Shown: positions 666 through 27,936 of the stretch, piece by piece | Layout: each line of letters opens with the position of its first letter | Position numbering within the stretch: position 1 is the stretch's first letter | Origin: an uncultured Gammaproteobacteria bacterium | Lineage (GTDB): Bacteria > Patescibacteriota > Patescibacteriia > 2-01-FULL-39-33 | Length of the DNA: 64,000 nucleotides | Assembly: GCA_964558935.1 (NCBI GenBank) | Contig: CAZLFP010000003.1 | Coordinates: 39,684-103,683 of the forward strand | Reading direction: 5' to 3' | Notes under the pieces: model-generated | Database searches by the model: none | What the model was told of the DNA's origin: nothing | The model's input: only the letters and a program-made list of their open reading frames with translations | Translations under genes and position numbers: made by a program

Positions 666-1763
666 ATGGGACTTTTTTCTAAAAAAACAAGTTATTTGGG
701 GATAGATATTGGTTCTTCTTCAGTTAAGGTAGTGGAGTTGGAGAATTTCAACGGACGGCCCAAATTGGCCACCTATGGCTTTACCGAGAAGAGCTTGTCG
801 GACTGGAACGGCGACAGTTCTTTGGGCAATCCTGAAGATATGGCAGCTGTGGTTAAGGAAGTGTGTCAGAAAGCCAAAACCAATTCCACCAAAGTCATAG
901 CGGCCTTGTCTAATTTTACGGTTTTTACCAGCATTATTTCCCTGCCGGAAATGTCCAAAAAGGAACTGGCTTCAGCCATTTCCTGGGAGGCCAAGAAAGT
1001 TATACCCGTCCCTTTGGAAGATATTATTTTAGACTGGAAAATCATTGAAGACAGCCAGCCGGAAGCAGTTACGACCGAGGCAGATAATAACCAGGTGGCC
1101 AATAAGATCAAATCCAAACCCAAAAAGAATTTAAAGATCTTGTTGACCGGAGCCAGTAAGAGTTTGGTTAAGAAATATATGGATATCTTTGCCCAGGCCA
1201 ATCTGTCTTTACTGAGTTTGGAAACAGAGAATTTTGCTTTAATCAGATCTTTAATCGGGAATGACAAGTCAGTCATGGCTTTAATAGATTTGGGGGCTTC
1301 GACTTCCAGTATTGCCATTGTAGACAAGGGAGTGCCGGTCTTAAGCCGGTCTTTGGATCTGGGTGGCCTGATGCTGACCAGGAATATTAGCAACAGTTTA
1401 AATGTCAATTTGGAGCGGGCTGAACAGTTTAAGCAGGATTTGGCCCTGGAATCGGATTCAGCCGCTGATGCTATGCCGCAATTGGTGGAAAAGTCCATGT
1501 CTTCCATTGTCAACGAGATTAAATACACCATTGGTTCCTTTCAAGAACAACAAGGCAAAAAAGTGGAAAAAATCATTTTAACCGGCGGCGGTTCTTTGTT
1601 GGGTAATTTAACCGGTTACATGTCGCGGGTTTTAAATGTCAACACCTATGTGGGAGATCCTTGGGCCAGAGTCATCTATCCGACCGAGTTAAAGCCGGTT
1701 TTGGATCGGTTGGGAGCGAGATTTGCGGTTGCCATCGGACTGGCCATGCGAAATATTGAATAA
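666..1763 (+). CDS. pilM: Type IV pilus assembly protein PilM (actin-like ATPase fold)
   Basis: N-terminal LGIDIGSSSVKVVEL sugar-kinase/actin fold motif. Size ~365 aa. Immediately upstream of an INLLP-motif PilN-like gene. Confidence 0.85.
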   Translation: MGLFSKKTSYLGIDIGSSSVKVVELENFNGRPKLATYGFTEKSLSDWNGDSSLGNPEDMAAVVKEVCQKAKTNSTKVIAALSNFTVFTSIISLPEMSKKELASAISWEAKKVIPVPLEDIILDWKIIEDSQPEAVTTEADNNQVANKIKSKPKKNLKILLTGASKSLVKKYMDIFAQANLSLLSLETENFALIRSLIGNDKSVMALIDLGASTSSIAIVDKGVPVLSRSLDLGGLMLTRNISNSLNVNLERAEQFKQDLALESDSAADAMPQLVEKSMSSIVNEIKYTIGSFQEQQGKKVEKIILTGGGSLLGNLTGYMSRVLNVNTYVGDPWARVIYPTELKPVLDRLGARFAVAIGLAMRNIE

Positions 1764-1774: not shown

Positions 1775-3394
1775 ATGCCAAATATTAACCTATTACCTGA
1801 CGATCTGCGCCAAGCCGAAGAAAAAGAATTGCGTAAGTTGGCTAAACAGCCGAAAATAGAAACCATTGAATTGTCTCAAGTACACAAGCAAGATCGGATT
1901 AAAGAGAGAACAGATAAGCCCAAGCAATCTTGGTGGAAAAAAGTCTTTGGTGAAGCACCGGCTAAGCCCAAGGTGGAATCAGCAGCGCCGGCAACACCTG
2001 CAGTGGCTCAAAGTATGAGCAGTGACCTATTATCTCAGGCCAAGAAGCAAAAGATCAGTTGGAGCAAACCAGTTACAAAGGCCAAGGCAAAGGTTAAGCA
2101 ACCGGTACTGGGCAAGCCTGCTCAGATTATCAAGCCGGTGGAACTCAAAGAGATGGCCAAACCTCAGCCTAAATTGAAAGAGGTTAGACCTCTGGCACCT
2201 CGACCCGTTAAGGTAGTGGAGAAATTGCTGTCTCAAGACAAGCCCAAAAAATGGCCTCAGACACAGCCGGTAGTCAAAACAAAGCCTAAAAAACTGCCTC
2301 AGCCGGTTAAACTGCCTCAGCCAGTGAAGCCGTTGCCACCCAAGGTTAAACCCGTTGCAATACACAAAGCCGGACAGGTCAGTTGGTGGCAAAAGCTGAA
2401 AGATTACTTTGCACCCCGAGCTGACAAGAGTAAAGAGCTGGACTTAAAGGCGGCGAAACTACCCACTTATGCACCAGTCAAGGAGCTACCCAAATTGGAA
2501 CAGTTGCCGGATACTCCACCTCCGGTGGTCGAGCTCAAATTAAAGCCCAAACCCCAGCCTAAACCGGCTCCGGCACCCAAACCGCCCAAACCGGTTAAAC
2601 TCAAACCAGTTAAACAACCTAAAATAAAACCAATTAAACAACCTAGAGTCAAGCGGGATAATTGGTGGAAATATCTTAAACAATGGCTTATGCAACCAAC
2701 TAAGCAAACACAACCTAAACCAGCGACGCCGCCTGCAGCGCCACGGCCGTCCCAACCGACAGCTCCTCAGGGTAAATACCACGTAGTTGAAGAAACAGCC
2801 AAACAAGGCTGGGGAGGGGTTAATCTATTGCCTAATGCAGCTGAAACTCGCAAAGTTTCTCCGACCATGAAGGGTCTGGGCTTAAGTGCGGCTGTCATTA
2901 TTCCCATTCTGCTCTTAATGGGCTGGTATTATGTAATTGGCTACCAAGAGGATATGTTAGACAAGCAAATCTTAACGGCTGAAAAGGAAATGGACAGTAT
3001 TTCTTCAGGTTTGGAAATTAAACGCCAGGTAGCGGAACAGAATGCTTTTTTGGAGAAAAAGATGCTGGCCATTAAAGGACTGTTGGATGACCATATTTAT
3101 TGGTCTGATTTCTTTAATCTGTTGGAAAAGTACACTTTGGATGAGGTGCATTATACGGATTTTACGGCAGATATTGGCGGAGAACTGTCTTTACCGGCCA
3201 TTGCTCAAGGCAACAGCATTGCCGATACCTATGCTGTGATCGCTCAACAGTTGCAAGCTCTGGAACAGGCTGATGATTTTGTTAAAACCGTGACAGTCGA
3301 GAATATTGATTTGGAAGTGGAGGAAGGCCAAGGTGTCACCGGTGCCTCCTTTGAAATCCAGTTGACATTGGTCGATGATGTGTTTGTTAAATAA
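1775..3394 (+). CDS. pilN: PilN-like inner-membrane pilus assembly protein with a ~330-aa Pro/Lys-rich low-complexity spacer
   Basis: N-terminus MPNINLLPDDL carries the conserved PilN INLLP motif. A single TM segment (LGLSAAVIIPILLLMGWYYVIGY) sits ~365 aa in, followed by a coiled-coil periplasmic domain. The intervening region is a PxKP/KPxP repeat (KPKPQPKPAPAPKPPKPVKLKPVKQPKIKP). Confidence 0.7.
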   Translation: MPNINLLPDDLRQAEEKELRKLAKQPKIETIELSQVHKQDRIKERTDKPKQSWWKKVFGEAPAKPKVESAAPATPAVAQSMSSDLLSQAKKQKISWSKPVTKAKAKVKQPVLGKPAQIIKPVELKEMAKPQPKLKEVRPLAPRPVKVVEKLLSQDKPKKWPQTQPVVKTKPKKLPQPVKLPQPVKPLPPKVKPVAIHKAGQVSWWQKLKDYFAPRADKSKELDLKAAKLPTYAPVKELPKLEQLPDTPPPVVELKLKPKPQPKPAPAPKPPKPVKLKPVKQPKIKPIKQPRVKRDNWWKYLKQWLMQPTKQTQPKPATPPAAPRPSQPTAPQGKYHVVEETAKQGWGGVNLLPNAAETRKVSPTMKGLGLSAAVIIPILLLMGWYYVIGYQEDMLDKQILTAEKEMDSISSGLEIKRQVAEQNAFLEKKMLAIKGLLDDHIYWSDFFNLLEKYTLDEVHYTDFTADIGGELSLPAIAQGNSIADTYAVIAQQLQALEQADDFVKTVTVENIDLEVEEGQGVTGASFEIQLTLVDDVFVK

Positions 3395-3415: not shown

Positions 3416-4027
3416 ATGGCACAGGATAAGAATACTAAAAAAACTAAAAAGTCGACTAACCTGCCAGGAATTGTGGATAACTTTTTTTTGCCGGTGCTCA
3501 TACTCTTGGCGGTTGCCGTCTTTATGGGTGGGTATATGTACCTGCTCAAGCAAGCCTACACAGACCTTGTGACCGTCCAACAGAAGCGCTTGAACCAGGT
3601 GGAAAAAACCATTGAGGATTTAAAAAAGCAAGAACAAGATCTGGACAAACTGAAAACAGCCGGAATTTCCTTTGACCAGTCGGAAAAAGAGCTGTTAAAT
3701 GCGGCTTTACCAGATGAATATGATTTTGCCTCCATTGTCATTCAGTTGACCTACTTGGCTGAAGAGTACGGCTTTACAGTTACCAGTTTGGAAATTGAAC
3801 CGGCTAAACCGGCTAAAAACGAAGACAACCAGATTACCTTACCTGCCGGCGTTAAGGCGGTTGACATTAGTCTGGAAGCGCAAGGCGTGGATTATCTGGG
3901 TTGGAAGCGTTTGGTGTCTGCTTTGGAAGGCAGTGCCATGATTATTGATGTTAAAGCGGTTAACATGGTAGTTGAAGAAGGCACCTATTCCTTGGAGTTA
4001 ACGTCATATTACTATCCAAAATCATAA
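3416..4027 (+). CDS. pilO: PilO-like pilus assembly protein (N-terminal TM plus coiled coil)
   Basis: N-terminal TM (FFLPVLILLAVAVFMGGYMYLL), then a coiled-coil segment, ~200 aa, directly after pilM-pilN. Assigned by position and architecture. Confidence 0.55.
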   Translation: MAQDKNTKKTKKSTNLPGIVDNFFLPVLILLAVAVFMGGYMYLLKQAYTDLVTVQQKRLNQVEKTIEDLKKQEQDLDKLKTAGISFDQSEKELLNAALPDEYDFASIVIQLTYLAEEYGFTVTSLEIEPAKPAKNEDNQITLPAGVKAVDISLEAQGVDYLGWKRLVSALEGSAMIIDVKAVNMVVEEGTYSLELTSYYYPKS

Positions 4028-4036: not shown

Positions 4037-4306
4037 ATGAAGAGTCAAAATTTAATTATTGGGTTGGTCATTTTGGTGGGTGTAGCCGGCTATCTAGCTT
4101 GGGATATTTACCAGATTCATCAGTCCATTAAATATGCCAGTTCTTTAGCTCCCGGTTTAAGGTTTTCCCAATCGGTTGGCAATGACAAAGTCAAGGCTGA
4201 AGTTATTGCCATGTTGGCAGATATGAAAGTGCATCGGTATGGAGAGTGGCCATTGGGACCGGTGGTTTTAAGCAGTGAGCGGGGCAATCCTTTTGCCGCT
4301 AAATAA
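4037..4306 (+). CDS. Small single-pass membrane protein in the pilus operon (PilP-like position), hypothetical
   Basis: 89 aa with an N-terminal TM (LIIGLVILVGVAGYLAW). Sits between the pilO-like gene and pilB. No recognisable motif. Confidence 0.4.
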   Translation: MKSQNLIIGLVILVGVAGYLAWDIYQIHQSIKYASSLAPGLRFSQSVGNDKVKAEVIAMLADMKVHRYGEWPLGPVVLSSERGNPFAAK

Positions 4307-4315: not shown

Positions 4316-6043
4316 ATGACACAGACTTCCCAGCTTAAAATTAAAGATTATTTAATTGCTCAGAATTTAGTGACTGAGGAGAAATTGGCTGAATTGGTGT
4401 CTCCCGGCCAGAATATGGAAGAGACATTGGTGAAGAAAAAAAAGTTCTTTTCACATCAGGAATTCACGAATATTAAAAGTCAGGTTTTTAATCTGCCGGT
4501 GGCGGATTTGTCGGATTTGGACGTCGAATCCAGTGTCTTGAATATTTTGAGCCAAAAAGCGGCTCAGAACTACCAAGTCTTGATTTTCGAGCGTCAAGGC
4601 AACCAGATTAAGGTTGGCATGGTGGACCCCGGTAATTTCCAAGCCAAAGAAGCGATTGAGTTCTTAGCTGCCCAGCAAGGCTTGAAACCGGAGTATTATG
4701 TCATTTCCTTCCAGGATTTTGTTAAAGTGTTCCGGTCTTACAGTGGTTTCCAGGAAGAGATTGGCACGGCATTGGAGTCGGCGAAAGTTAAGTTTGAACA
4801 AAAGGTGGAAAAGCTAAAAACCGTCAGTGATGCCGATTTACAGTCAGTGGTTAAAAGTGCGCCCGTAGCTAAGATCGTGTCTGTTATTATCCAGCATGCA
4901 GTGGAGGGTCGAGCTTCAGATATCCACATTGAACCCTCGCGCAATGCCGGTCGGGTTAGATACCGGGTGGACGGGGTATTGCATACTTCTTTGGAAGTGC
5001 CAGGTTACTTGTATTCTTCCATCGTGTCTCGCATCAAAGTTTTGGCCAGTATGAAGCTGGATGAAACGCGTATTCCACAGGATGGCAGAATTAGAGTGAG
5101 CGTGGATGAGAGGGAAATTGATTTAAGAGTTTCTGTTTTACCAACTCTTGATCTGGAAAAGGTGGTTATGCGGGTGTTGGATACTTCAGCCGGAGTGCCG
5201 ACTTTGAAAGAATTAGGTTTTAGCGACCAGCAGATAGAGGTTATTGACCGGAATATGAAAAAGCCGTATGGCTTATTCTTAATGACCGGTCCGACCGGTT
5301 CCGGTAAAACCACCACTTTGTATTCGATCTTGAATAACCTGAATTCCGAGACGTTTAATATTACCACTCTGGAAGATCCGATAGAATACTATGTTCAAGG
5401 CGTTAACCAGTCTCAGATCAACCATACGGTTGGCTACACCTTTGCTTCCGGTTTGAGAGCGATTTTAAGGCAAGATCCGAATATTATCATGGTGGGTGAG
5501 ATTAGAGATAATGAAACGGCTGAGCTGGCCATTCATGCCGGTTTGACCGGTCACTTGGTTTTTTCCACTTTACACACCAACAGCGCTTGGGGAGCCGTGC
5601 CTCGGTTAATAGATATGAAGTGCGAACCATTCTTGTTGGCTTCCACCTTGAATTTGGTTATGGCTCAAAGATTGGTTAGAACCATTTGTCCGGACTGCAA
5701 GGTAGAGGACCGGGTTTCTGACAAGATCAGACAAAGATTGGACAATGAACTAGCAGCTATGCCACCGGAGATATTGGCCAAATTTAACGGTCAGCATACT
5801 TTTTACAAAGGCAAGGGTTGTCAGTCTTGTGCCAATTCCGGCTATCTGGGCAGAACGGTGGTGGCAGAGATCTTGGAGATTAACCGAGATTTGAAAGATT
5901 TGATTGCGGAAGGCAGTACGTCCAAGAAGCTGGATGAGATTCAAAAGGAGCAGAAATTCCTGACTCTGGTTCAAGATGGGGTCTTAAAAGCTTTGGAAGG
6001 CAAGACGACCGTCGAAGAAGTGGTTCGTGTATCTCAGCTATAA
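4316..6043 (+). CDS. pilB: Type IV pilus assembly (extension) ATPase PilB/GspE
   Basis: Canonical Walker A GPTGSGKTTT, Asp box EDPIEY, Walker B IIMVGEIRD, His box HLVFSTLHT and a C-terminal tetracysteine motif (CPDC...CQSC). N-terminal GSPII-type domain. Confidence 0.92.
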   Translation: MTQTSQLKIKDYLIAQNLVTEEKLAELVSPGQNMEETLVKKKKFFSHQEFTNIKSQVFNLPVADLSDLDVESSVLNILSQKAAQNYQVLIFERQGNQIKVGMVDPGNFQAKEAIEFLAAQQGLKPEYYVISFQDFVKVFRSYSGFQEEIGTALESAKVKFEQKVEKLKTVSDADLQSVVKSAPVAKIVSVIIQHAVEGRASDIHIEPSRNAGRVRYRVDGVLHTSLEVPGYLYSSIVSRIKVLASMKLDETRIPQDGRIRVSVDEREIDLRVSVLPTLDLEKVVMRVLDTSAGVPTLKELGFSDQQIEVIDRNMKKPYGLFLMTGPTGSGKTTTLYSILNNLNSETFNITTLEDPIEYYVQGVNQSQINHTVGYTFASGLRAILRQDPNIIMVGEIRDNETAELAIHAGLTGHLVFSTLHTNSAWGAVPRLIDMKCEPFLLASTLNLVMAQRLVRTICPDCKVEDRVSDKIRQRLDNELAAMPPEILAKFNGQHTFYKGKGCQSCANSGYLGRTVVAEILEINRDLKDLIAEGSTSKKLDEIQKEQKFLTLVQDGVLKALEGKTTVEEVVRVSQL

Positions 6044-6062: not shown

Positions 6063-6449
6063 ATGCCGAAAAAAGACAAAATCGCGATCCTGATCATTGA
6101 AGATGATGTTTTTTTAGCTGATTTGTATCGCGCTAAGTTTGAAATGGAGGGATTTGATGTCTTCTTGGCCCATGATGGTGAAAAGGGGCTGGAAGCGACT
6201 AAGAAAAAAATGCCGGATGCCATTTTATTGGATCTGGTTTTACCGAAGATTGACGGCTTCAGTGTTTTGGATGAACTGAAGAAAAATGCTAAATTAAAAT
6301 CCATTCCGGTTATTTTGCTGACCAATTTGAGTCAAAAGGCGGATGTGGATAAGGGTATTGCCAAGGGAGCAGATGATTATTTAATTAAAGCTCATTTCAT
6401 GCCATCTGAGGTGGTAACCAAGATTATGAAGCTGGTTAAAAAGAGTTAG
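6063..6449 (+). CDS. Single-domain CheY-like response regulator (REC only)
   Basis: 128 aa with an acidic pocket (EDD), a phosphoacceptor Asp in LLDLVLPKIDGF and a conserved Lys (KAHF). No output domain. Confidence 0.85.
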   Translation: MPKKDKIAILIIEDDVFLADLYRAKFEMEGFDVFLAHDGEKGLEATKKKMPDAILLDLVLPKIDGFSVLDELKKNAKLKSIPVILLTNLSQKADVDKGIAKGADDYLIKAHFMPSEVVTKIMKLVKKS

Positions 6450-6450: not shown

Positions 6451-7521
6451 ATGGACACTGCTCAAGCTTTGTCAATTCGTAAGATTTTGACCCAGGCGAT
6501 TGCCCGGGGCGCGGCTGATCTCCACTTTTCAGTCGGTAATCGTCCGACTTTAAGGATTAACGGAGATCTGGCCGGTATGGAAGACCAGGATATTATTGAC
6601 ATGGCTTTTATGGAACAGCTGGTGTCTTGGCTGTTGACCCCGGAACAGAGCAAGCTGTTAAAGCAGAATAGGGAGATTATCATAACGCATGATTTTGACA
6701 AACAGCTCAGGTTTAAAATTAATATTTTTTACCAACGGAATTTTTTGTCAGCCACTTTAAGGCATATTCCCTGGCAAGTACCGGTTTTAGATTCACTGAA
6801 TTTAAATCCTAAAGTCAAGGCACTGACCAATTTACAGAAAGGCTTGGTTATTGTAGCAGGTTCCTTCGGTTCCGGTCGGTCAACCACGGTGGCTGCCATG
6901 CTGGAAGAGATTAATTTAAGCCGTAAAGAGTATATTATTACCATTGAAGACCCGATTGAGTATTTGTATATCAACAAGCAGAGTATTATTGAACAAAGAC
7001 AGGTGGGCAGAGATGTTAGAACTATGGCTGATGCCATTAAGTACTTTGAAGAAGAGGATGGAGACATTTTGTATCTGGAAGGCATGGAAGATCCCAAGAT
7101 CATACCTCAGGTGTTGGAAATTGCCAGAGCTGGCGCTTTGGTTATAACCCATGTCACGGCTGCGACGGCAGCGGAAACCATATCGCGGATTATAGACAGT
7201 TTCACCAGTTTGGATCAGGAGAGGATCCGCGATTTACTGGCTTCAGCGCTCCAGGCGGTGGTGTGCCAGAAAGTCATACCCCAAATGGGCGGAGGAGTGA
7301 TGGTGATCCAGGAAATATTAATGGTGAATGACACTGTTAAGTCCATTATATTGGACGGTCGAACCAACCAGTTGGCCAGTGTCATTATGAATTCAGCTGA
7401 AGACGGCATGGTTTCATTTGACCAGATCTTAGCCAAATTAGTGGCAGAGCGGCGCATTTCTCTGGTTGATGCTTTGGACAATGCCACCGATCGCAAAAGA
7501 TTAGAAAAAATGATTAGATAA
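6451..7521 (+). CDS. pilT: PilT-like twitching-motility ATPase paralog with degenerate catalytic motifs
   Basis: PilT-size (356 aa) with a PilT-like layout and Asp box EDPIEY. Walker A reads GSFGSGRSTT (Lys replaced by Arg), Walker B reads LEGMED instead of VGEMRD, and the His box reads ALVITHVTA instead of HLVFGTLHT. Confidence 0.8.
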   Translation: MDTAQALSIRKILTQAIARGAADLHFSVGNRPTLRINGDLAGMEDQDIIDMAFMEQLVSWLLTPEQSKLLKQNREIIITHDFDKQLRFKINIFYQRNFLSATLRHIPWQVPVLDSLNLNPKVKALTNLQKGLVIVAGSFGSGRSTTVAAMLEEINLSRKEYIITIEDPIEYLYINKQSIIEQRQVGRDVRTMADAIKYFEEEDGDILYLEGMEDPKIIPQVLEIARAGALVITHVTAATAAETISRIIDSFTSLDQERIRDLLASALQAVVCQKVIPQMGGGVMVIQEILMVNDTVKSIILDGRTNQLASVIMNSAEDGMVSFDQILAKLVAERRISLVDALDNATDRKRLEKMIR

Positions 7522-7539: not shown

Positions 7540-8748
7540 ATGCCGGTATTTGAATATAAGGCGAAAAATCAAGCGGGGGAAGTGCAAGAGGGCTTAGTGG
7601 AGGCTGCCAGTGAAGAAGCGGTGGCTGTTTTGTTGGGGGATAAGAATCTGTCTGTCGTATCCATTACAGCCAAGGAAGAGGCGGGTTTAGGTGGCATCAG
7701 TCTGACGTTAACCAAGGTTAAGACCAAGGATTTGGTGGTGTTCTTTCGTCAATTATCTGTCATGGTGGAAGCTAATCTGCCGATTGTCAAAGCCATGCGG
7801 ATTTTGACTCGTCAAACAGACAACCGGTATTTAAAAGCTGTAATAGCCAGTATTGCGGATGAAGTCGAAGGTGGTGCCAAACTGTCTCAGGCCATGTCCA
7901 CATATCCGGAAGTGTTTTCCAATTTTTACACCAATGTGGTGGCCTCCGGTGAAACTTCCGGTCGTTTAAGTGATGTTATGAATTATTTGGCTGATCAGGC
8001 TGAAAAGGATTATGATTTAAAATCCAAACTGCAGGGTGAAATGATTTATCCGGCTTTTATTTTTGGCATGTTGGGCATTGTTGGTTTTGTGATCATGACT
8101 TGGGTAATACCTCAAATTACGGAAATGGTGACTCAATCCGGAGCTGAACTCCCGATTGCCACTCAGATTCTAATTGCCGTATCCAAGTTTTTTGGCAGTT
8201 ATTGGTGGGCAGTGTTGTTGGGTTTGGTTGGTTTGGGTGGAGGTCTGTTTTACTTCGTTAAAAAAACCGAAGGTGGCAAACAAATGTTTGACCAGCTGAT
8301 TGTCAACATTCCCATTTTTGGTTCTGTTTTCAGAATTATTTACATTGTTAGGATTACCCAGTCTTTCCATACGCTGTTGGTCGGTGGTGTACCTGTCTCT
8401 CAAGCCTTGGAAACGGTTAAGGAGGTTGTGGATAACGTGGTCTACAAAGCAGTCATTGAACAAGCCATTCAAGATGTGGATGAGGGTACTTCTTTAGCTG
8501 AAAGTTTAATTGTCAGCAAATACATTCCCAACATGGTGGCTCAAATGATCAGTATTGGAGAAGAAACAGGTAAATTAGACCAAATTTTAGGTAGAATTTC
8601 TGATTTTTATACCCGAGAGATTAATAATTCACTTAAGAATTTAACCTCTTTGATCACACCAATCATTATGGTGATCTTAGCGGTTGCGATCGGTGGTTTT
8701 GTGGCAGCTGTGATTATGCCGATGTGGCAGTTATCTGCTGCTTTCTAG
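7540..8748 (+). CDS. pilC: Type IV pilus inner-membrane platform protein PilC/GspF
   Basis: 402 aa with two GspF repeats and three TM segments, typical of the PilC/GspF family. Follows the ATPase genes. Confidence 0.9.
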   Translation: MPVFEYKAKNQAGEVQEGLVEAASEEAVAVLLGDKNLSVVSITAKEEAGLGGISLTLTKVKTKDLVVFFRQLSVMVEANLPIVKAMRILTRQTDNRYLKAVIASIADEVEGGAKLSQAMSTYPEVFSNFYTNVVASGETSGRLSDVMNYLADQAEKDYDLKSKLQGEMIYPAFIFGMLGIVGFVIMTWVIPQITEMVTQSGAELPIATQILIAVSKFFGSYWWAVLLGLVGLGGGLFYFVKKTEGGKQMFDQLIVNIPIFGSVFRIIYIVRITQSFHTLLVGGVPVSQALETVKEVVDNVVYKAVIEQAIQDVDEGTSLAESLIVSKYIPNMVAQMISIGEETGKLDQILGRISDFYTREINNSLKNLTSLITPIIMVILAVAIGGFVAAVIMPMWQLSAAF

Positions 8749-8891: not shown

Positions 8892-9314
8892 ATGAAGCAA
8901 AAAGGTTTTACTTTAATTGAGTTGTTGGTGGTTATTGCCATTATTGGTCTGTTGTCTTCTTTGGCGGTTGTCTCTTTAGGCGGTGCCAGAAATAAGGCCT
9001 ATGATGCCCAGATTAAGAGTGATTTGGGACAGGTTAGGACTTTAGCTGAGGTTCATTATGTCGGAGCAGGTTCATATGCTGGTTTTTCTAACATCCAAGG
9101 CTTAACTCCTCCGGCTTGCTCAACAGGCGGTGATTATACACCATCTATCAGTAGTAACGGTGTTGAATATAGATCACATGCTCCGTTATGTGGTGAATCT
9201 GGTAAATATTTTTGTGTAGACTCTTCAGGTAATGCTTGTCAAACAGATGGGGCATCTGCAGATGAAGATTTAGAAGATGAAGACACATCTACCGCTCCTT
9301 GTGTCTGTGAATAG
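8892..9314 (+). CDS. pilA: Type IV (major) pilin
   Basis: Class III signal MKQKG^FTLIELLVVIAIIGLL with G at -1 and E at +5. C-terminal Cys pair (APCVCE) and an acidic tail. It has its own promoter region and a strong terminator. Confidence 0.88.
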   Translation: MKQKGFTLIELLVVIAIIGLLSSLAVVSLGGARNKAYDAQIKSDLGQVRTLAEVHYVGAGSYAGFSNIQGLTPPACSTGGDYTPSISSNGVEYRSHAPLCGESGKYFCVDSSGNACQTDGASADEDLEDEDTSTAPCVCE

Positions 9315-9328
9315 TTTTTTTCATCAAA

Positions 9329-9355
9329 TCCCCCTTAATCGGGGGATTTTTTTAT
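9329..9355 (+). terminator. Rho-independent terminator after the major pilin
   Basis: Hairpin ATCCCCC-TTAATC-GGGGGAT followed by a T7 run. Confidence 0.8.
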
Positions 9356-9371
9356 GCTATAATATCTGTAT

Positions 9372-9791
9372 ATGACCCAAAGGACCAAGTTTAAATTAGT
9401 GATCTACCTTATTTTACTCATCATTGGCATTAGCTTGGTGACTTGGTTATGGTTGCATAACCTGGCGGTTCAAAGAGATTATGAGAGAATCTCAGATATG
9501 CGCAACCTGCAAAGCAGATGGCTAAGCTATTTTGCCAAATATAATACTTTTGAGATCTCTCATTGCCAAGCTGGGCGCTTAATATCCAGTTGTGGTGGCG
9601 GCAATGGCCAAGTGTTAGACACAACCGGTTTAGTCGATCCCTTAAACCAAGATCAGTACAGGTATGTGGTGGAAGCTGTGACTCAAGATGATTTTAGCGT
9701 CAGTTTTTATTTGGAAACACAAATTGGTAATTTATTGCCGGGTCAATATCTGTTGGATTCACAGGGAATTTCCATTCCAACTCAATCTTAA
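9372..9791 (+). CDS. Hypothetical N-terminally anchored membrane protein between the pilin gene and pilD
   Basis: 139 aa with an N-terminal TM (KLVIYLILLIIGISLVTWLWL) and a Cys pair (SHCQAGRLISSCGGG). No prepilin G/E motif. Confidence 0.45.
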   Translation: MTQRTKFKLVIYLILLIIGISLVTWLWLHNLAVQRDYERISDMRNLQSRWLSYFAKYNTFEISHCQAGRLISSCGGGNGQVLDTTGLVDPLNQDQYRYVVEAVTQDDFSVSFYLETQIGNLLPGQYLLDSQGISIPTQS

Positions 9792-9794
9792 ATT

Positions 9795-10577
9795 ATGCTT
9801 CTAATTGTCTTAACTTTTATCTTTGGACTGCTGGTGGGCAGTTTTTTAAATGTGGTGATACTGCGCCTCAAATCTCAAGAGGATATCATGTTGGCCAGGT
9901 CTCATTGTCCCAAGTGCCGAACGACTTTACAGGTGTGGGATTTACTGCCGGTTATAAGTTTTGTGTTGCTCAGAGGCCGCTGTCGTTACTGCCAGACTCG
10001 GATTGCTTGGCAGTATCCACTTATTGAACTGGCCACTGCCAGTTTGATGGCCGGCACCACTTATGTGGTGACTCAAGGTCAAGGTTTAAGCTCTTTGACG
10101 GACAGTTATGCAGTCATTGCCTGGCTGAGAGATTTGTATATTGTCGGACTTTTGATTGTCATCTTTGTGTATGATCTAAAATATTATTTAATTTTAGATA
10201 AAGTCACTTTACCGGCTATAGTTATTCTTTTAATCATTAATTGGTATTTAGGCTGGCCGGTTTTAGACATGCTGTTGGCGGCCGGTTTGGGTGGCGGTTT
10301 TTTTGGTCTGCAGTTTGTACTTTCAAAAGGCCAATGGATTGGAGGAGGGGATTTGCGTTTGGGGGTGTTAATGGGGATTATCTTAAGTTGGCCCAATATT
10401 CTGGTCGGTTTGTTTTTAGCTTATATCATCGGGGCGGTGATTTCCCTGTTGCTGGTGGCTGTTAAAAGAAAAACTGCCAAGTCAGCCGTACCTTTTGGCA
10501 CTTTCTTAACCATTGGCACATATCTGAGTATGTTGTTTGGCAGTCAGATTGTGACTTGGTACCTAAATATGTTATAA
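9795..10577 (+). CDS. pilD: Prepilin peptidase (A24 family) PilD
   Basis: N-terminal tetracysteine zinc motif (CPKC...CRYC) and a multi-TM body with the conserved Asp-containing loops of the A24 family. It is the only prepilin peptidase in the window. Confidence 0.9.
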   Translation: MLLIVLTFIFGLLVGSFLNVVILRLKSQEDIMLARSHCPKCRTTLQVWDLLPVISFVLLRGRCRYCQTRIAWQYPLIELATASLMAGTTYVVTQGQGLSSLTDSYAVIAWLRDLYIVGLLIVIFVYDLKYYLILDKVTLPAIVILLIINWYLGWPVLDMLLAAGLGGGFFGLQFVLSKGQWIGGGDLRLGVLMGIILSWPNILVGLFLAYIIGAVISLLLVAVKRKTAKSAVPFGTFLTIGTYLSMLFGSQIVTWYLNML

Positions 10578-10584
10578 TATAGGT

Positions 10585-11112
10585 ATGTTAATGTCTGAGA
10601 AGGGCTTTACTTTTATTGAAATCCTCTTGGTCGTGGCGATTGCGGCCGTGTTTTCTGGTATGGCAATTCTTAATTTCAGAGTCAATGATGCTAACCGCGA
10701 CTTAAATAACCAAGCTCTCATTATTGTCAGTAAGCTTAAAGATATGCAGAATGCGGCTTTAACCGGAACCGTTGCCGGCTCAGGGGTTCAGAGTGAGTAT
10801 CGGGTTAGTTTTGAAGATAACGATGGTAGTCGAGATAGTTTGGTAGTGGGAACAATTGCAGGTTTCAAAGAAACCAAATTGGATTCGAATATAGATATCA
10901 ACTATTATGATGCAGATTATAATCAAGTTTCTATGAGGCTAATGACCATTGCATTTAAACCGCCGAGAGCTGATGTATTCATGAGATTTGGTGGCAATAG
11001 TTATACCCAAAACAGTCTAATCATTGGCCTTAGTCATTCCAACACATCTCAGCAGCGCTTTGTGGAGGTTAATCGTATCTCTGGACGCATCGATATTCGT
11101 AATGAACGTTAA
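10585..11112 (+). CDS. Minor pilin / pseudopilin
   Basis: Prepilin signal MSEKG^FTFIEILLVVAIAAV (E at +5). Confidence 0.72.
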   Translation: MLMSEKGFTFIEILLVVAIAAVFSGMAILNFRVNDANRDLNNQALIIVSKLKDMQNAALTGTVAGSGVQSEYRVSFEDNDGSRDSLVVGTIAGFKETKLDSNIDINYYDADYNQVSMRLMTIAFKPPRADVFMRFGGNSYTQNSLIIGLSHSNTSQQRFVEVNRISGRIDIRNER

Positions 11113-11122
11113 GTGATTTATC

Positions 11123-11809
11123 ATGTCTGACATGCAAAAAATGTCTAATCAATCTGGTTTCACCCTCTTGGAACTGTTAGTTGCTCTAACCATTATTACG
11201 GTCGGCCTGTTTGCGGTTTGGAGTTTGTTTTTAGCTAACTATAACTCAGAAAAAGAAGCGCGTAGTCGAGTGATTGCCGTTAATCTGGCTCGGGAAGGTA
11301 TTGAAGTGGTCAGGAATATCCGAGATTCTAATTGGATGAAGATTAATGAAAATGTGTATCAAAATGTTTCGACACCCTACCAATGGTACGATGGATTGCT
11401 GGCAGCAGGAGATGCTACTTCTGTCATTCGCGATCTTGACGGAGAAGCTTATTTGTATTTTGATGCCGTTCACATAGATGATCCATCGTCAGATTTAAAG
11501 TTAAATGACGACGGTTTTTATGTTAACCAAGCTGACGCTTCAGGCGGAAAAAATACTCCCTATCGTCGCATTATTATGACTAAAAGTATTTGCTGTGATG
11601 ACGTGAATATTGTTGATAATCAGTGTGATAAGGATGCTCAAGGTCGGTTTAAACCGTTTACAGGATCCAATGTCGGTGGAGTTTTCCCGCTCTGTAACCC
11701 AGATAACCAGCTGACAATTGGGATTGATGTGAGTGTTGCCATTCGCTGGCAAATAGACGGACAGGATAGGAATCTGGTCGTTAAAGATCAACTTTTTAAT
11801 TGGCGTTAA
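11123..11809 (+). CDS. Minor pilin / pseudopilin
   Basis: Prepilin signal NQSG^FTLLELLVALTII. Confidence 0.72.
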   Translation: MSDMQKMSNQSGFTLLELLVALTIITVGLFAVWSLFLANYNSEKEARSRVIAVNLAREGIEVVRNIRDSNWMKINENVYQNVSTPYQWYDGLLAAGDATSVIRDLDGEAYLYFDAVHIDDPSSDLKLNDDGFYVNQADASGGKNTPYRRIIMTKSICCDDVNIVDNQCDKDAQGRFKPFTGSNVGGVFPLCNPDNQLTIGIDVSVAIRWQIDGQDRNLVVKDQLFNWR

Positions 11810-12366
11810 TTATGTTTAACCAAAGATCACAATCCGGCTTTACTCTAATAGAAATCATTTTATCCATTGGTGTTTTTGCTGTTTTGTCAATCATTATTTC
11901 AGGCATTTATTTAAACACCAGCAATCTGCAAAGAACCACCGCTAATTTTCAATTACTGCAGAACGATGGCCGGTATATTTTGGACAAGATCGCCAAAGAA
12001 TTTAGAGCCAGGGAATTGGATTATACCCAAATTGATGAAAGTATAAACACGGCAATTTATTTTAAACCTGACCAAACCGGCAAAGAGGTGTCTTTAATAT
12101 ATGATGAAGATACTCAAGATTTAATGTATTGGGAAGACAGCTTGTCTGCACCCTTAAACGCGGGTAACGTGGAAGTGATCAACTTGAAGTTTTTGGTCTA
12201 TCCAGCTGAATATGACCCCACTATTTTTGATAATGACTACACTCCCATTTTAAACCAACCCAGACTAACCATCTTGCTCAGTTTAAGAAATCGGGATTTA
12301 GATCCCAGATACCAGCAAGAACTAACCTTGCAAACCACCATCTCAAGTAAAGTTTACCTAAGATAA
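11800..12366 (+). CDS. Minor pilin / pseudopilin
   Basis: Prepilin signal RSQSG^FTLIEIILSIGVFA. Overlaps the previous gene by 10 nt. Confidence 0.7.
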   Translation: MALIMFNQRSQSGFTLIEIILSIGVFAVLSIIISGIYLNTSNLQRTTANFQLLQNDGRYILDKIAKEFRARELDYTQIDESINTAIYFKPDQTGKEVSLIYDEDTQDLMYWEDSLSAPLNAGNVEVINLKFLVYPAEYDPTIFDNDYTPILNQPRLTILLSLRNRDLDPRYQQELTLQTTISSKVYLR

Positions 12367-12369
12367 CCT

Positions 12370-13200
12370 ATGCGTAACCAACAAGGAGTCATTCTGCTGA
12401 TCGCTCTCATCATTATGTCAATTCTGCTATCCACTGCGGTGGCTTTTGGCATTATTATCATGTCTTCTCTCAGACAGGCCAAGGCGACAGATGATGCTGT
12501 GGTGGCGTATTATGCGGCTGATGCCGGGTTGGAAAGAAGCTTGTTTCATCTGAGAAAGAATGATGTGATAAACTTTGTCGGCAGTGATGAAACTGAAGTC
12601 AATTCTCTAAAAGAATATTATAGCGATTATGACGGATTGGAAGTTGAGCTTGGCACTAACCAGGCCAGTTGGAATATTTTAAACTCGTCAGATACTAGAA
12701 GTGCCATTTACCGTCAAAGATTGTTTAACGGCCAGAGTCTTAAGGTGTATCTGTTAAAATTAGATGATTACGTTGGTGGTGAGAATGAGCCCAATAATGT
12801 TTGGATAGATTGGAATCCAATAGATAATCCAGCGGTTAGAATTCAGGTGACTTTAACCAGTTTGACCTATCCGTTTGATATTGAATATAGTCAGGTCTTT
12901 TTTACACCCGGAGAAGAATATATAGAGCTACCGGATTTAGGCAATGATTATGTGTTAGAAATTAAAGTCTTGGGCAATTCAGAAGATGATTTTCTGGATG
13001 AGTTGGAAGTTATGGTGCAGAATGATGCTACTGATTTTTTACAGGGAGAAAATGCTAAATTGTATGTTACCACTTTGCATTCTGAGGGCAATTACCGTGG
13101 GTCCAGGCAGGTTATTCAAGCGGAGATCCCACCTTTTGATCCGGTATCCGGAGTCTTAGGTTTTGTTCTATTCTCAGATCAAGATATTATTAAGCAATAA
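12370..13200 (+). CDS. PilX-like minor pilin (large, non-canonical N-terminus)
   Basis: N-terminus MRNQQGVILLIALIIMSILLSTAVAF resembles a PilX/PilK-type hydrophobic helix without E at +5. Last gene of the minor pilin set. Confidence 0.5.
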   Translation: MRNQQGVILLIALIIMSILLSTAVAFGIIIMSSLRQAKATDDAVVAYYAADAGLERSLFHLRKNDVINFVGSDETEVNSLKEYYSDYDGLEVELGTNQASWNILNSSDTRSAIYRQRLFNGQSLKVYLLKLDDYVGGENEPNNVWIDWNPIDNPAVRIQVTLTSLTYPFDIEYSQVFFTPGEEYIELPDLGNDYVLEIKVLGNSEDDFLDELEVMVQNDATDFLQGENAKLYVTTLHSEGNYRGSRQVIQAEIPPFDPVSGVLGFVLFSDQDIIKQ

Positions 13201-15189
<1,989 letters not shown>

Positions 15190-15532
15190 AAAAACCACTG
15201 AAGCGATTCAGTGGCAGTATCAAGGCAAGCACTGCGTGTCATAATGCCGAGTTAGCCGGAGGCAGGCTCACTTAAGAGTGAGCTTGGTTGCCGGTTAGGT
15301 AGCTATGGGGGTAGAAGTGGTCTATCGGCTGACCAGCATTACTTGGCACCCAGTCATCACCGGGTCAAACACCGCAGCTGTTTGCCATCGCAAACAGGCT
15401 CAACCGAGCATTAATACTTACCTTGACTTAACAACCATAACACAGGCGTGTTCTGGGGTCAAGCTAACCCCTTGCCATTTTGAGGTCAACCATGCTAAAA
15501 TAGGCCATAGATTGCTGAAACCAACATTTACT
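15190..15532 (+). ncRNA. Candidate structured non-coding RNA or leader of unknown class. Strand uncertain.
   Basis: A 343-nt non-coding gap with several perfect hairpins: 15198-15216, a nested extended helix at 15250-15300, an 8-bp stem at 15378-15397 and GGGGT-N7-ACCCC at 15455-15471. The track ORF 15305..15826 is an artefactual upstream extension of gatC. Confidence 0.3.
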
Positions 15533-15826
15533 ATGCAGTTAACCCAAGAACAAGTTGAGCACATAGCTCAGCTAGCCAGATTAAACTTAACTGACCAAGA
15601 AAAGATTACTTACCAACAAGAGTTATCTTCCATTTTGGATTATGTGGATAAATTGCAGGCTGTTGATACAACCAATGTTCAAGAGACTTCACAAGTGACC
15701 GGTTTACAGAATGTAACCAGATCTGATACAGTGATTGACCAAGGATTGAACGAACAACTGTTGGAACAAGCGCCTCAGGCCAAGCATGGCTATTATGTTA
15801 TCCCTAAGATTTTTGACAACAAGTAA
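15533..15826 (+). CDS. gatC: Glu-tRNA(Gln)/Asp-tRNA(Asn) amidotransferase subunit C
   Basis: 97 aa starting MQLTQEQVEHIAQLARLNLTDQEK, the typical GatC N-terminus, immediately upstream of gatA. The track ORF start at 15305 is rejected. Confidence 0.85.
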   Translation: MQLTQEQVEHIAQLARLNLTDQEKITYQQELSSILDYVDKLQAVDTTNVQETSQVTGLQNVTRSDTVIDQGLNEQLLEQAPQAKHGYYVIPKIFDNK

Positions 15827-15828
15827 AC

Positions 15829-17292
15829 ATGGATTTACACCAATTATCTGTCCTTCAAGCTTTTGAAGGCTTAAGAGATAAACAATTTACCGCTCAGGAC
15901 TTAACCCAAGCCAGTTTAGATCAAATTGCCCGTTTGGATGAGCAAGTCAAAGCCTATATCACCGTCACTTCAGATTTGGCTTTGCAGACGGCCAAAGAAG
16001 TGGACGCAAAAATTGCTGCCGGGGATGAATTGCCTCCCTTGGCCGGTATTCCGGTTGGCATTAAAGATGTTTTTTGCACACAAGGTGTGACCAGTACAGC
16101 CGGTTCTAAGATTTTGGAACATTACGTACCGGCTCAAAATGCTACCGCTGTGGCTAAATTGGTGGCTAACCAGGCAGTGATGGTGGGTAAAACAAATATG
16201 GATGAATTTGCCATGGGTGGTTCGACTGAGAATTCCGGTTTTTTTCCAACCAAGAATCCGTGGGATTTGGACCGGGTACCGGGCGGCAGTTCGGGTGGTA
16301 GTGCAGCAGCTGTGGCGGCTTGCATGTGTCAGTATGCTTTGGGCACAGACACCGGTGGTTCTATTCGTCAGCCGGCTGCTTTTTGCGGTATTGCTGGATT
16401 GAAAGTTTCCTATGGTCGAGTTTCCAGGAGTAATGTGATGGCAATGGCTTCTTCCCTGGATACCATTGGACCCATGGCCAGGCGAGTGGAAGATCTGGCC
16501 GTGGTTTTGTCTCAAATTGCGGGTTTGGATCCTCAAGATGCGACCACCCCTGATGTGGCTGTACCGGATTATACTCAGTTTTTAAATCAAGATATTACCG
16601 GTCTGAAAATCGGTCTGCCCAAGGAGTATTTTATTGAAGGTATGGATCCGGAAGTCAGACAGGTTGTTTTGGACGCTGCCAAACAACTGGAAGCCATGGG
16701 AGCTCAAGTTGTGGACATTTCTCTACCGCACACTGATTTGGCTGTTGCCGTGTATTATATCCTGGTACCGTCAGAAGTTAGTTCCAATTTGGCCAGATAT
16801 GATGGTATACGATATGGTTTGTCAGACAGAGAGAGTGGCAATTTGGCAGATATTTATCTCAAGAATCGTTCCTTAGGCTTGGGCAAGGAAGTTAAAAGAC
16901 GGATTATGATCGGCAGTTATGCTTTGTCGGCCGGCTACTATGATGCCTATTACAAAAAAGCCATGCAAGTCAGAACTCTGGTTAAACAAGATTTTGACCG
17001 AGCGTTTGAACAAGTGGATGCCATTTTAACACCGGTGGCTCCCACCCCGGCCTTTAAATTGGGTGAGAACATCAATGATCCACTGAAGATGTATCTGGCC
17101 GATGTCTTTACCATTCCTGCTTCTTTGGCCGGTATCTGTGGTTTGTCTTTACCGGCTGGCCGAGTTAATAATCTACCGGTCGGTATTCAGTTGCTGGGCA
17201 AGAGAATGGATGAAGCCATGGTATTGAGAATTGGCCATCAGTATGAGCAAGCCACAGACTGGCATCTTAAACAACCAGATTTAATTCAATAA
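15829..17292 (+). CDS. gatA: Glu-tRNA(Gln)/Asp-tRNA(Asn) amidotransferase subunit A (amidase signature family)
   Basis: Amidase signature GGSSGGSAAAVAA, a Ser-cisSer-Lys catalytic context, 487 aa, located after gatC. Confidence 0.95.
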   Translation: MDLHQLSVLQAFEGLRDKQFTAQDLTQASLDQIARLDEQVKAYITVTSDLALQTAKEVDAKIAAGDELPPLAGIPVGIKDVFCTQGVTSTAGSKILEHYVPAQNATAVAKLVANQAVMVGKTNMDEFAMGGSTENSGFFPTKNPWDLDRVPGGSSGGSAAAVAACMCQYALGTDTGGSIRQPAAFCGIAGLKVSYGRVSRSNVMAMASSLDTIGPMARRVEDLAVVLSQIAGLDPQDATTPDVAVPDYTQFLNQDITGLKIGLPKEYFIEGMDPEVRQVVLDAAKQLEAMGAQVVDISLPHTDLAVAVYYILVPSEVSSNLARYDGIRYGLSDRESGNLADIYLKNRSLGLGKEVKRRIMIGSYALSAGYYDAYYKKAMQVRTLVKQDFDRAFEQVDAILTPVAPTPAFKLGENINDPLKMYLADVFTIPASLAGICGLSLPAGRVNNLPVGIQLLGKRMDEAMVLRIGHQYEQATDWHLKQPDLIQ

Positions 17293-22621: not shown

Positions 22622-22762
22622 ATTTGGTTAAAATCTCCAATTTATGGTATAATTATACTATCCATAACTGTGGATAGGTGATATTTTTATTAAACTTCTA
22701 CAATTGTCTAAACCCCACTAAACAAGCAGATTAATTTGGTTGTTTGGTTTGAAATAGATATT

Positions 22763-24025
22763 ATGCCCGCCAATTTTTTAAACAAACATTTAGATGTAAA
22801 AGTGTTGCAATACTTGGATATTATTAGCGCTATTGTGGTGGTTATTAACACGCGCGGTCAAGTTGCGTACATCAACAAACTGGGAGCTAAAGCCATGGGC
22901 TATACACCTCAGGAAATGATTGGCCAGGATTGGGTAGTCAATTTTTTACCCAAGGATATCCAGGCGGAAGTAAAGCAGTTGTCCCAAAAAATGCTGAAGG
23001 GAAAGATCAAGGTTGTGGAGCATTTTGAAAACCCAATTGTAACCAAAACCGGTCAGCAGCGTATCATTGCTTGGAGCGGTCAGATTCTAAAAGATGACCA
23101 GGGTAAGATTACCGGACATATGAGTACCGGCATAGACATTACAGATTTAAAGGAATCTCAACATCTTTTTCAGACAATTGTGGAACACAGTCATGATGCC
23201 ATTATGGTCACACAAATGAATGGTGTAGTCAGTTATCTAAGTCCATCGGCCAAAAGAGTGCTGGGTCATGACCCTAAGCGAATAGTCGGTATAGATCCGG
23301 ATATTATTGATCCTCAAGACAAGGATAAGGTGGCTCAAGCTTTCCAGAGTGCCCTGCAGGGTCAGTCTGGCTCACAGCTGGAATACCGGATTGTCACTGA
23401 TCAGGGACAGTCTAAATGGATTTCTCATTCTTGGTCACCCATTATATCGCAAGGTAAAATTAAAGAGATTGTGAGTATTATCTCTGATATTGATGAAACT
23501 AAACGCCGGACTGAACAGGAAGCGCAGAGAAAGGATCAGTTAATTGATGCACTTAGAAAATATGAGATCATGTTTAATATCAACCGAGACATTATTATCC
23601 AATTGGATCCCAAGGGCAAGATTTTAGACATTAACAACCGAGTAGAGGATTATGGCTATGCCAAATCTGATTTTATTGGAAAAAGCACTTTTAAGCTGGC
23701 CGGTGTTATTCCCAAGAAATGGTGGCCGAAAATCGTTCAAGTGTATGCACAGCGAATGAAAAAAGCAGAGGTGGAGAATTACGAGATACAGATTAAGGAT
23801 AAGCAGGGTAGTTTGTATGATGTGGAAATCAGCCCGGTTTCCATTCGAAATGACCAAGGCAAGGTTATTGGTGCCTTTGTCAGTCTACACGACATAACTC
23901 AGTTGAAAAAAAGTCAGCAAGAATTGAAAGATAAAATCAAGGATTTGGAAAGATTGAATGAACTGATGGTGGGTCGGGAATTAAAAATGGCTGAGTTAAA
24001 AAAGAAATTAAAGCAGTATGAATAA
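22763..24025 (+). CDS. Multi-PAS sensor protein with no catalytic output domain and a C-terminal coiled coil
   Basis: Three PAS-like modules (two PAS/PAC-like repeats with NTRGQVAYINKLGAKAMGYTPQEMIGQDW, MVTQMNGVVSYLSPSAKRVLGHDPKRIVG and DPKGKILDINNRVEDYGYAKSDFIGKS). Ends in a coiled coil ...ERLNELMVGRELKMAELKKKL. Start chosen at MPANFL (22763). Confidence 0.8.
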   Translation: MPANFLNKHLDVKVLQYLDIISAIVVVINTRGQVAYINKLGAKAMGYTPQEMIGQDWVVNFLPKDIQAEVKQLSQKMLKGKIKVVEHFENPIVTKTGQQRIIAWSGQILKDDQGKITGHMSTGIDITDLKESQHLFQTIVEHSHDAIMVTQMNGVVSYLSPSAKRVLGHDPKRIVGIDPDIIDPQDKDKVAQAFQSALQGQSGSQLEYRIVTDQGQSKWISHSWSPIISQGKIKEIVSIISDIDETKRRTEQEAQRKDQLIDALRKYEIMFNINRDIIIQLDPKGKILDINNRVEDYGYAKSDFIGKSTFKLAGVIPKKWWPKIVQVYAQRMKKAEVENYEIQIKDKQGSLYDVEISPVSIRNDQGKVIGAFVSLHDITQLKKSQQELKDKIKDLERLNELMVGRELKMAELKKKLKQYE

Positions 24026-24034
24026 TCCAAAAAT

Positions 24035-27935: not shown

Positions 27936-27936
27936 C

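Follow-up and report, generated by a model that had tools for sequence, protein, structure and literature searches.

Retraction by the ATPase PilT has been traced to specific active-site residues. Hydrolysis and retraction need the Walker A Lys and the catalytic Glu, E204 (PMC6821130); E204 acts as the catalytic base, twitching is lost in E204A and H229A mutants, and function also requires the gamma-phosphate His (H229/H230), H230 being described as conserved in the whole PilT/VirB11 family (PMC6858323). Closed and open subunit interfaces are set by the contacts T221-H230, T221-T133, and R195-D161/T133, of which the R195 contact crosses the interface (PMC6858323). The characterized PilT paralogs that we examined keep all four motifs, as reported for Geobacter PilT1-4 (PMC5065972), the Myxococcus PilT paralogs and PilU (PMC13584747), and the TM7x PilT (PMC12206443). 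Here, we describe pilT', a gene for a PilT-fold protein with a degenerate active site, located at positions 6451 to 7521 of a 64-kb stretch of contig CAZLFP010000003.1 (the whole stretch is called the window below) within a pilus operon of a Patescibacterium.

PilT proteins with altered motifs have been studied in two other bacteria. In Vibrio cholerae, ATPase-dead PilT K136A/E204A retains PilC binding and allows retraction by way of PilU, and the phenotype of the ATP-locked E204A state differs from that of K136A (PMC6821130). In Bdellovibrio bacteriovorus, a motif-deficient pilT1 lies in a pilB-pilT1-pilC operon with a canonical pilT2 elsewhere, and mutating both genes causes a milder defect than mutating pilT2 alone (PMC4237445). 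In surveys of genomes from the candidate phyla radiation (CPR)/Patescibacteria, "PilT, retraction ATPase" is routinely recorded as present (e.g., PMC11809585, PMC12206443), and genome papers on the class ABY1 list it as well. A full-text literature search for PilT together with Patescibacteria/CPR, Walker A, degenerate, or pseudo-ATPase returned no description of the protein family reported here.

PilT' has the PilT fold and a substituted active site

PilT' is recognizable as a member of the PilT family over its entire length. It matches PF00437 (T2SSE) at 65.8 bits (E 3.5e-18), above the gathering cutoff of 24.9, and aligns end to end with the NCBIfam model TIGR01420 (pilT_fam; residues 9-349 against profile positions 2-342 of 343) at 298.6 bits (E 6.3e-89), below the curated cutoff of 319.1. 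In a phmmer search of all PDB chains, the leading matches were Aquifex PilT (2ewv, 4.5e-69), Geobacter PilT4 (6ojx, 1.1e-59), and Pseudomonas aeruginosa PilT (3jvu, 6.3e-53), followed by Thermus PilT and then by PilU (P. aeruginosa 9N32), DotB, and the PilB/GspE group. An AlphaFold2 model built with 33 family members as input (predicted local distance difference test score 88.6, predicted template modeling [TM] score 0.85) contains the two-domain PilT fold, with an N-terminal PAS-like domain and a RecA-like ATPase domain; it is a model of the monomer and carries no information on nucleotide occupancy. Foldseek placed this model closest to PilT4 (6ojx/6ojy; TM score 0.85, with PilT4 matches at 0.83 to 0.86), then to PilT2, PilU, and PilT; the TM scores for these four proteins together are about 0.8 to 0.86.

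The substitutions are concentrated in the catalytic motifs (Table 1). Residues are numbered as in PilT', and the Geobacter metallireducens PilT number is the PilT' number minus 6. A preliminary description of this DNA had reported altered Walker A, Walker B, and His box motifs next to an intact Asp box. HMMER alignments to solved PilTs are gap-free across every motif, so the motif registers given there were right: Arg143 stands at the Walker A Lys, each substituted motif is at the structurally equivalent position, and the Asp box is identical to that of canonical PilT. One His is present in the His-box region, His234, and it is out of register with the canonical His. The codon for Arg143, CGG (6877-6879), is two substitutions away from AAA/AAG and is thus not explained by a single-base error. 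Overall, PilT' keeps the PilT fold, the P-loop glycines together with Ser/Thr and a basic residue, the glutamates of the Asp box that bind Mg, and the arginines of the N-domain. Missing from it are the Walker A Lys, the catalytic Glu, the gamma-phosphate His with its T221 partner, and the interface residues R195 and T133. Because the curated score falls short and the Walker A Lys, catalytic Glu, and His box are all missing, we interpret PilT' as a PilT-derived protein that should not be filed as a functional PilT. Membership in PilU was also considered and rejected, as the motifs are not intact and no PilT is adjacent.

A family of PilT-like proteins shares the Arg-type active site

A search of 5.8 billion proteins recovered about 88 clusters with 47 to 66% identity to PilT', which we call the Arg family. 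The named clusters belong to Patescibacteria ("Patescibacteria group"), Candidatus Buchananbacteria, or Candidatus Falkowbacteria; taxon labels here and below are the submitters' names. All clusters but one lack the His box and have a P-loop of the form Gx[FY]GSGR[ST][ST]T and a DVLFL[E/D]x-type Walker B.

We compared 86 Arg-family members with 75 canonical PilTs at the substituted positions. The Walker A Lys position is Arg in 85/86 family members versus Lys in 75/75 canonical PilTs, and the R195 position is Glu in 83/86 versus Arg in 75/75. Phe replaces T133 in 84/86 members; Thr is found there in only 51/75 canonical proteins, making this the exception among the replaced canonical residues, which are otherwise fixed in 73 to 75 of the 75. 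The Walker B Gly position (210) is Glu or Asp in 82/86 members, and the family has Asn or Ser at the EMRD Arg, Gly at T221, Ser or Ala at H223, and Ser, Thr, or Ala at H230. At the catalytic Glu position, the 86 members have Glu (44), Gln (20), Lys (9), Asn (3), or other residues, and the window protein has Gly. Another set of residues is invariant in canonical, other His-less, and Arg-family PilTs alike (G137, G142, S/T144-146, E166, E170, R87, R104, Q182, and R183), and 43 columns are invariant across 33 family members. This pattern indicates that the whole network for hydrolysis and interface closure has been replaced in a coordinated way in the Arg family, with the nucleotide/Mg-binding scaffold kept under strict constraint.

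Related loci use all six Arg codons at the Walker A site (CGG, AGA, CGC, CGA, CGT, and AGG), which indicates that selection maintains Arg as the codon changes. The degenerate state of PilT' is conserved and selected across a whole lineage of Patescibacteria. These data also bear on whether pilT' could be a pseudogene undergoing decay, an artifact of sequencing or assembly, or an open reading frame (ORF) arising by chance, as might be suspected from the coincidence of several motif losses and a score just under the TIGR01420 cutoff. Such an origin is extremely improbable for an intact, full-length ORF with a confidently predicted fold, a codon two changes from Lys, and the invariant columns just described. 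We reject it, since dozens of orthologs share the substitutions with synonymous codon variation and conserved synteny.

The Lys-to-Arg change lies within a wider clade that lacks the His box

To place the Arg family among its relatives, we assembled 260 nonredundant single-domain PilT-like proteins from the family hits, 150 representatives of a profile search of 1.84 billion sequences, and the proteins of 90 loci. Where the H230-equivalent His is kept, the Walker A residue is Lys in 75 sequences, Arg in 1, and another residue in 0; where it is lost, the counts are Lys 44, Arg 137, and other 3. In a crude neighbor-joining tree of these proteins, which were sampled by similarity to PilT', the His-less sequences form one clade of 185 tips with one exception, about 26 Lys/Arg switches fall within that clade, and the Arg family of the window is a monophyletic subclade of 86 tips nested in the His-less Patescibacteria clade.

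A second search, centered on a "Falkowbacteria" subfamily of low guanine-plus-cytosine (GC) content, added 115 His-less proteins, of which 111 have Lys, 101 have the catalytic Glu, and 110 have Asn at the H230 position. In 296/299 His-less sequences (99%), the Walker A residue is basic (Lys or Arg), and this preserved positive charge in the P-loop points to retained phosphate binding. Based on these distributions, the Lys-to-Arg change would be the last step of a wider remodeling in which the His box was lost first and T133, R195, T221, H223, and H230 were replaced as well. Among the matches listed, the named His-less loci come from Buchanan-, Falkow-, Kuenen-, Komeili-, and Uhrbacteria (ABY1-type Parcubacteria), and the operons of the same context that carry a canonical PilT belong to Saccharibacteria and Yanofsky-, Staskawicz-, and Azambacteria.

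The search also uncovered two other kinds of PilT-like gene. One is another His-less class (loci L019-L021, L023, and L025), whose genes immediately precede pilM and have neither pilB nor a receiver gene in the vicinity; its matches lie at about 10001-11068 in L020, L021, L023, and L025 and at 654-1721 in L019. This class keeps the Lys, has the Walker B LSELS, GRLVITNLEADTI, and is found in Patescibacteria of higher GC content, one of them with a 1.15-Mb genome in a single contig. The other consists of natural tandem PilT-PilT fusions (P0128, 708 amino acids [aa], and P0121-P0127). In P0128, the N-terminal half is degenerate, with the Arg P-loop GNRGSGRSCT and no His box, and the C-terminal half is fully canonical; it appears to be a dead module covalently paired with an active one.

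PilT' occupies the operon position of a canonical PilT

The pilus operon that contains pilT' (locus 1; Table 1) runs in the order pilM, the 539-aa gene, the pilO-like gene, the 89-aa ORF, pilB1, receiver, pilT', pilC, the pilin/pilD genes, and ligA-gatC-gatA. The nearest DNA homologs of pilT' share about 58% amino-acid identity with it, and homologous loci at 51 to 59% identity have an identical gene order from pilM to ligA-gatCA, with a receiver gene directly upstream of pilT'. A contig scan with the family alignment, for which the signature YFEEEDGD also served as a pattern, found at least 7 close relatives among the matches listed, each from a different assembly. Compared with the locus L001, the identities are 67% for PilM, 62% for PilB, 70% for the receiver, 56% for PilT', and 57% for PilC; that PilT' has diverged about as much as PilC and PilB argues that the gene is not decaying.

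Canonical CPR PilTs are found in the same slot, in a pilT-pilC-pilin-pilD...ligA-gatCA context, and five pilB-receiver-pilT-pilC cassettes, from Saccharibacteria and others, contain a fully canonical PilT. The label "paralog" in the preliminary description therefore does not hold, as a gene filling the slot of canonical PilT is better viewed as a derived ortholog than as a spare copy. We consider pilT' to be a lineage-specific positional ortholog of PilT, carried in the principal type IVa pilus operon of a Patescibacterium of the Buchananbacteria/Falkowbacteria type.

We then asked how many PilT-like genes accompany it. Searching the 64-kb window by tblastn with canonical PilT and with the PilT' protein, we detected T2SSE-like regions only at PilB1, PilT', and PilB2, bearing out the earlier statement that pilT' is the sole PilT-like gene of the window, and none of roughly 45 related loci showed a second PilT-like gene in flanks of about 10 kb. 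The earlier claim that both extension ATPases are canonical was likewise correct: PilB1 and PilB2 keep GPTGSGKTT, the Asp box, GEIRD, and GHLVxSTLH, the exact PilB1 motifs being GPTGSGKTT, LEDPIE, MVGEIRD, and GHLVFSTLHT.

These counts matter for the idea that PilT' is an adaptor or accessory ring which, seated on PilC, would recruit or modulate an intact ATPase of the PilT/PilU type whose gene lies in another part of the genome. V. cholerae PilT K136A/E204A, which can bind PilC and permits retraction as long as PilU is active (PMC6821130), and the pilT1/pilT2 arrangement of B. bacteriovorus (PMC4237445) provide precedents, the fusion P0128 joins an Arg-type degenerate half to a canonical one, and our view of the genome spans 64 kb. 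We nevertheless judge this unlikely, because pilT' sits in the canonical PilT slot of related CPR operons and so looks like the original gene in altered form more than an added copy, and because no second PilT-like gene is present in the window, its second pilus locus included, or near the related loci. Moreover, complete genomes of the ABY1-class Patescibacterium danicum list exactly one pilT (K02669; PMC11809585), a copy that may be His-less, within an inventory of exactly one pilT, pilB, pilC, and pilM (PMC11809585 supplement).

Table 1. Coordinates of pilT', its motifs, and the surrounding genes in the window
Feature	Position	Strand	Basis or remarks
pilM	666-1763	+	PilM_2 match 5.9e-44
539-aa protein in pilN position	1775-3394	+	Gene order as in homologous loci
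pilO-like gene	3416-4027	+	Weak PilO match; order kept in homologous loci
89-aa ORF	4037-4306	+	Order kept in homologous loci
pilB1, extension ATPase	4316-6043	+	PF00437 5.1e-126 plus MshEN
Single-domain CheY-like response regulator	6063-6449	+	PF00072 1.6e-22
pilT', 356-aa PilT-fold protein with degenerate active site	6451-7521	+	ATG-start ORF, translation, profile and PDB matches
Walker A/P-loop, GSFGSGRSTT vs GPTGSGKSTT	6859-6888	+	Arg143 for invariant Lys; Phe139 for T133
Asp box, IEDPIEY, intact (Glu166, Glu170)	6943-6963	+	Same as Aquifex PilT
Family signature, YFEEEDGD	7042-7065	+	Glu201 for interface Arg R195 (G. metallireducens PilT numbering)
Degenerate Walker B, DILYLEGMED vs DVIFVGEMRD	7063-7092	+	Glu210 for Gly, Gly211 for catalytic Glu, Glu213 for Arg
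Lost His box, AGALVITHVTA (GALVITHVTA vs GHLVFGTLHT)	7129-7161	+	Ala227 for T221, Ala229 for H223, Thr236 for H230
Weakened AIRNLIRE helix, TVKSIILDG vs AIRNLIREN	7333-7359	+	Hydrophobic pattern kept; Arg and Glu lost
pilC, platform protein	7540-8748	+	PF00482 3.7e-62, two T2SSF repeats; PilC and GspF models
Pilin/pilD block with further unassigned ORFs	8892-13200	+	N_methyl and Peptidase_A24 matches
Pilins	8892-9314; 10585-11112; 11123-11809; 11800-12366	+	N_methyl matches
pilD, prepilin peptidase	9795-10577	+	Peptidase_A24 match
ligA-gatC-gatA	13207-17292		Conserved genes after the pilin block

A phosphorylatable receiver precedes pilT'

The stop codon of the CheY-like receiver gene lies 1 nucleotide ahead of the pilT' start, and its product has Asp14, Asp15, and the acceptor Asp57 all present. 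A receiver gene is found upstream of pilT' in every Arg-family locus with upstream sequence and in about 38/46 His-less locus entries, some of which are redundant. We considered whether this receiver might be specific to degenerate PilTs and rejected the idea, since the five same-receiver cassettes noted above carry a fully canonical PilT. The pairing of the receiver with pilT predates the degeneration. Pilus operons with a CheY-like receiver between pilB and pilT are widespread in Patescibacteria and include the Saccharibacteria canonical-PilT loci L035 and L067; the locus tags published for TM7x do not allow for a receiver gene there. At 70% identity versus 56 to 67% for its neighbors, the receiver is the most conserved protein of the cassette.

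Several further features of the window and of related loci were recorded. The product in the pilN position is unusually long and without a Pfam match. Upstream of pilM, an ORF at 27-632 encodes the C-terminal part of a larger protein that extends past the edge of the window, and homologous loci likewise have large unannotated proteins ahead of pilM. In the Buchananbacteria-type L001, a gene of the bAvd/23S_rRNA_IVP family (15608-15955) sits amid minor pilin genes and may belong to a diversity-generating retroelement as an accessory gene; among the window ORFs scanned, no Pfam match to an equivalent was found. The window also contains a second pilus locus (22736-38498) with its own signaling module and no PilT-like gene. 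It encodes a triple-PAS protein, a histidine kinase with seven-transmembrane (7TM), dCache, HAMP, and PAS regions (7TM-dCache-HAMP-PAS; 24513-27551), and two CheY-like receivers (27570-27935 and 27937-28302), followed by pilB2, a short pilC2 of 360 aa, and a pilin, and it ends with a 2,299-aa protein (31599-38498) that has only a weak Laminin_G match.

PilT' may act on PilC as a nucleotide-binding ring with little or no hydrolysis

The preliminary description had proposed that locus 1 may have a catalytically impaired retraction motor, which may act as a regulatory pseudo-ATPase and so affect whether the pili retract; such a role would be one inferred from residues and gene context. An impaired PilT is still the best reading, because the substitutions remove every residue experimentally needed for PilT hydrolysis and retraction, but the impairment is not specific to this locus; it is a conserved, lineage-wide state. 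In P-loop nucleoside triphosphatases, replacing the Walker A Lys with Arg usually preserves nucleotide binding and lowers hydrolysis by orders of magnitude, as in RecA K72R and Rad51 K191R. Our literature search found no test of this substitution in PilT. With somewhat better than even confidence, we favor the interpretation that PilT' is a PilT ortholog that still binds nucleotide, hydrolyzes it poorly or not at all, and acts noncatalytically on PilC as a switch, brake, or adaptor. PilT' would still form a ring and bind ATP or ADP, as the P-loop and Asp box would otherwise be expected to drift. Hydrolysis would be very slow or absent, given that the Walker A Lys is now Arg and the catalytic Glu and gamma-phosphate His are gone. 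A long-lived, nucleotide-bound PilT' ring could then dock beneath PilC/PilM in competition with PilB1 and uncouple or block extension, serving as a switch, a brake, or a permissive plug for passive disassembly, with no power stroke. The cotranscribed CheY-like regulator might bias which ring is engaged, its phosphorylatable receiver being a plausible input.

Several observations weigh against this interpretation. About half of the Arg family keeps Glu at the catalytic position, and the acidic residue at 210 in 82/86 members produces a classical hhhh[D/E]E-like Walker B, such that some members may hydrolyze ATP slowly. In addition, the sister subfamily that retains both Lys and catalytic Glu indicates that loss of the His box alone need not mean inactivity, and the clade structure comes from a crude tree of similarity-sampled sequences.

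Some of the same observations favor a slow but working retraction ATPase with a rewired site, in which Arg143 would substitute for Lys, the acidic residue 210 would serve as the Walker B acid/base, and Ser/Thr/Asn at 236 would sense the gamma-phosphate. The strong constraint on the P-loop, Asp box, and N-domain arginines, the Glu or Asp at 210, the sister subfamily with Lys and Glu but no His box, and the retention of the protein in the core operon beside pilC would all fit such an enzyme. We think it improbable, because the catalytic position is Gly211 here and Gln, Lys, Asn, Asp, Arg, Ala, or Gly in about half of the family, Gln being the classic hydrolysis-dead substitution, and because a Lys-to-Arg change typically costs P-loop enzymes so much of their hydrolysis. 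Furthermore, H229A or E204A alone abolishes PilT function (PMC6858323).

If PilT' is indeed a nonhydrolyzing ring, a bolder proposal can be made, although we hold it only as a tentative possibility: the ABY1-type radiation (Buchanan-, Falkow-, Kuenen-, Komeili-, and Uhrbacteria) may be without any hydrolyzing retraction ATPase, its sole PilT being a nonhydrolyzing, nucleotide-binding ring that works as a phospho-relay-controlled clutch on PilC. The conversion would have been stepwise, with the His box, T221, and R195 lost first and Lys-to-Arg and loss of the catalytic Glu following, and the pili of these episymbionts would extend under PilB and shorten only passively or be held.

Type IV pili are the main predicted organelle for host contact, motility, and DNA uptake in the ultrasmall CPR/Patescibacteria. 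If a large lineage truly has only a nonhydrolyzing PilT, retraction behaviors predicted from annotation, namely, twitching, forceful attachment, and pilus-mediated DNA uptake, may fail there. The Arg family would then correspond, as a natural and conserved case, to the ATP-locked PilT mutants with which motor switching has been dissected, and a clade that keeps the P-loop would offer a ready-made test of what the PilT ring does without catalysis.

Comparison with known systems

Canonical PilTs (Aquifex aeolicus 2EWV, G. metallireducens PilT4 6OJX, and P. aeruginosa 3JVV) have the same length and two-domain fold as PilT' (TM score 0.85) at 31 to 33% identity, and canonical CPR PilTs, such as the Saccharibacteria TM7x PilT, are 37 to 41% identical to it. 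These proteins have in common with PilT' the Asp box, the QRExG segment, the N-domain RFR/RFK arginines, and the slot directly upstream of pilC. They differ in that PilT' has Arg for Lys and Gly for Glu, has both His residues, T221, R195, and T133 replaced, and has a weakened AIRNLIRE helix. PilU, a PilT-like paralog, also has the same fold, P. aeruginosa 9N32 being both a structural and a sequence match; however, PilU is intact at the Walker A Lys, the Walker B Glu, the Asp box, and the His box and depends on ATPase activity of its own (PMC6821130; PMC13584747), whereas PilT' is degenerate. Other His-less subfamilies of ABY1-type Patescibacteria, such as the "Falkowbacteria" type (alignment A2), belong to the same clade, have the same pilB-receiver-pilT'-pilC cassette, and have Gly in place of T221 and no H230. 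They differ in keeping Lys (111/115) and the catalytic Glu (101/115) and in having Asn at H230, and the Arg family is further derived.

The closest described analogues of PilT' are Bdellovibrio PilT1 and the engineered PilT K136A/E204A. PilT1 (Bd1510) is motif deficient and encoded between pilB and pilC, as PilT' is, and its authors proposed that it regulates or stabilizes the pilus rather than retracting it (PMC4237445). Compared by description, PilT1 reportedly has no recognizable Walker A and a retained Walker B, whereas the P-loop of PilT' is strictly conserved with Arg; Bdellovibrio also has its canonical PilT2 elsewhere in the genome, and for PilT' the 64-kb window is what is in view. 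The engineered ATPase-dead V. cholerae PilT resembles the state we propose for PilT', a nonhydrolyzing ring that still bears on pilus dynamics (PMC6821130). The V. cholerae proteins are laboratory mutants that depend on an active PilU, whereas the state of PilT', with no PilU-like partner seen in the 64-kb window, is natural and conserved.

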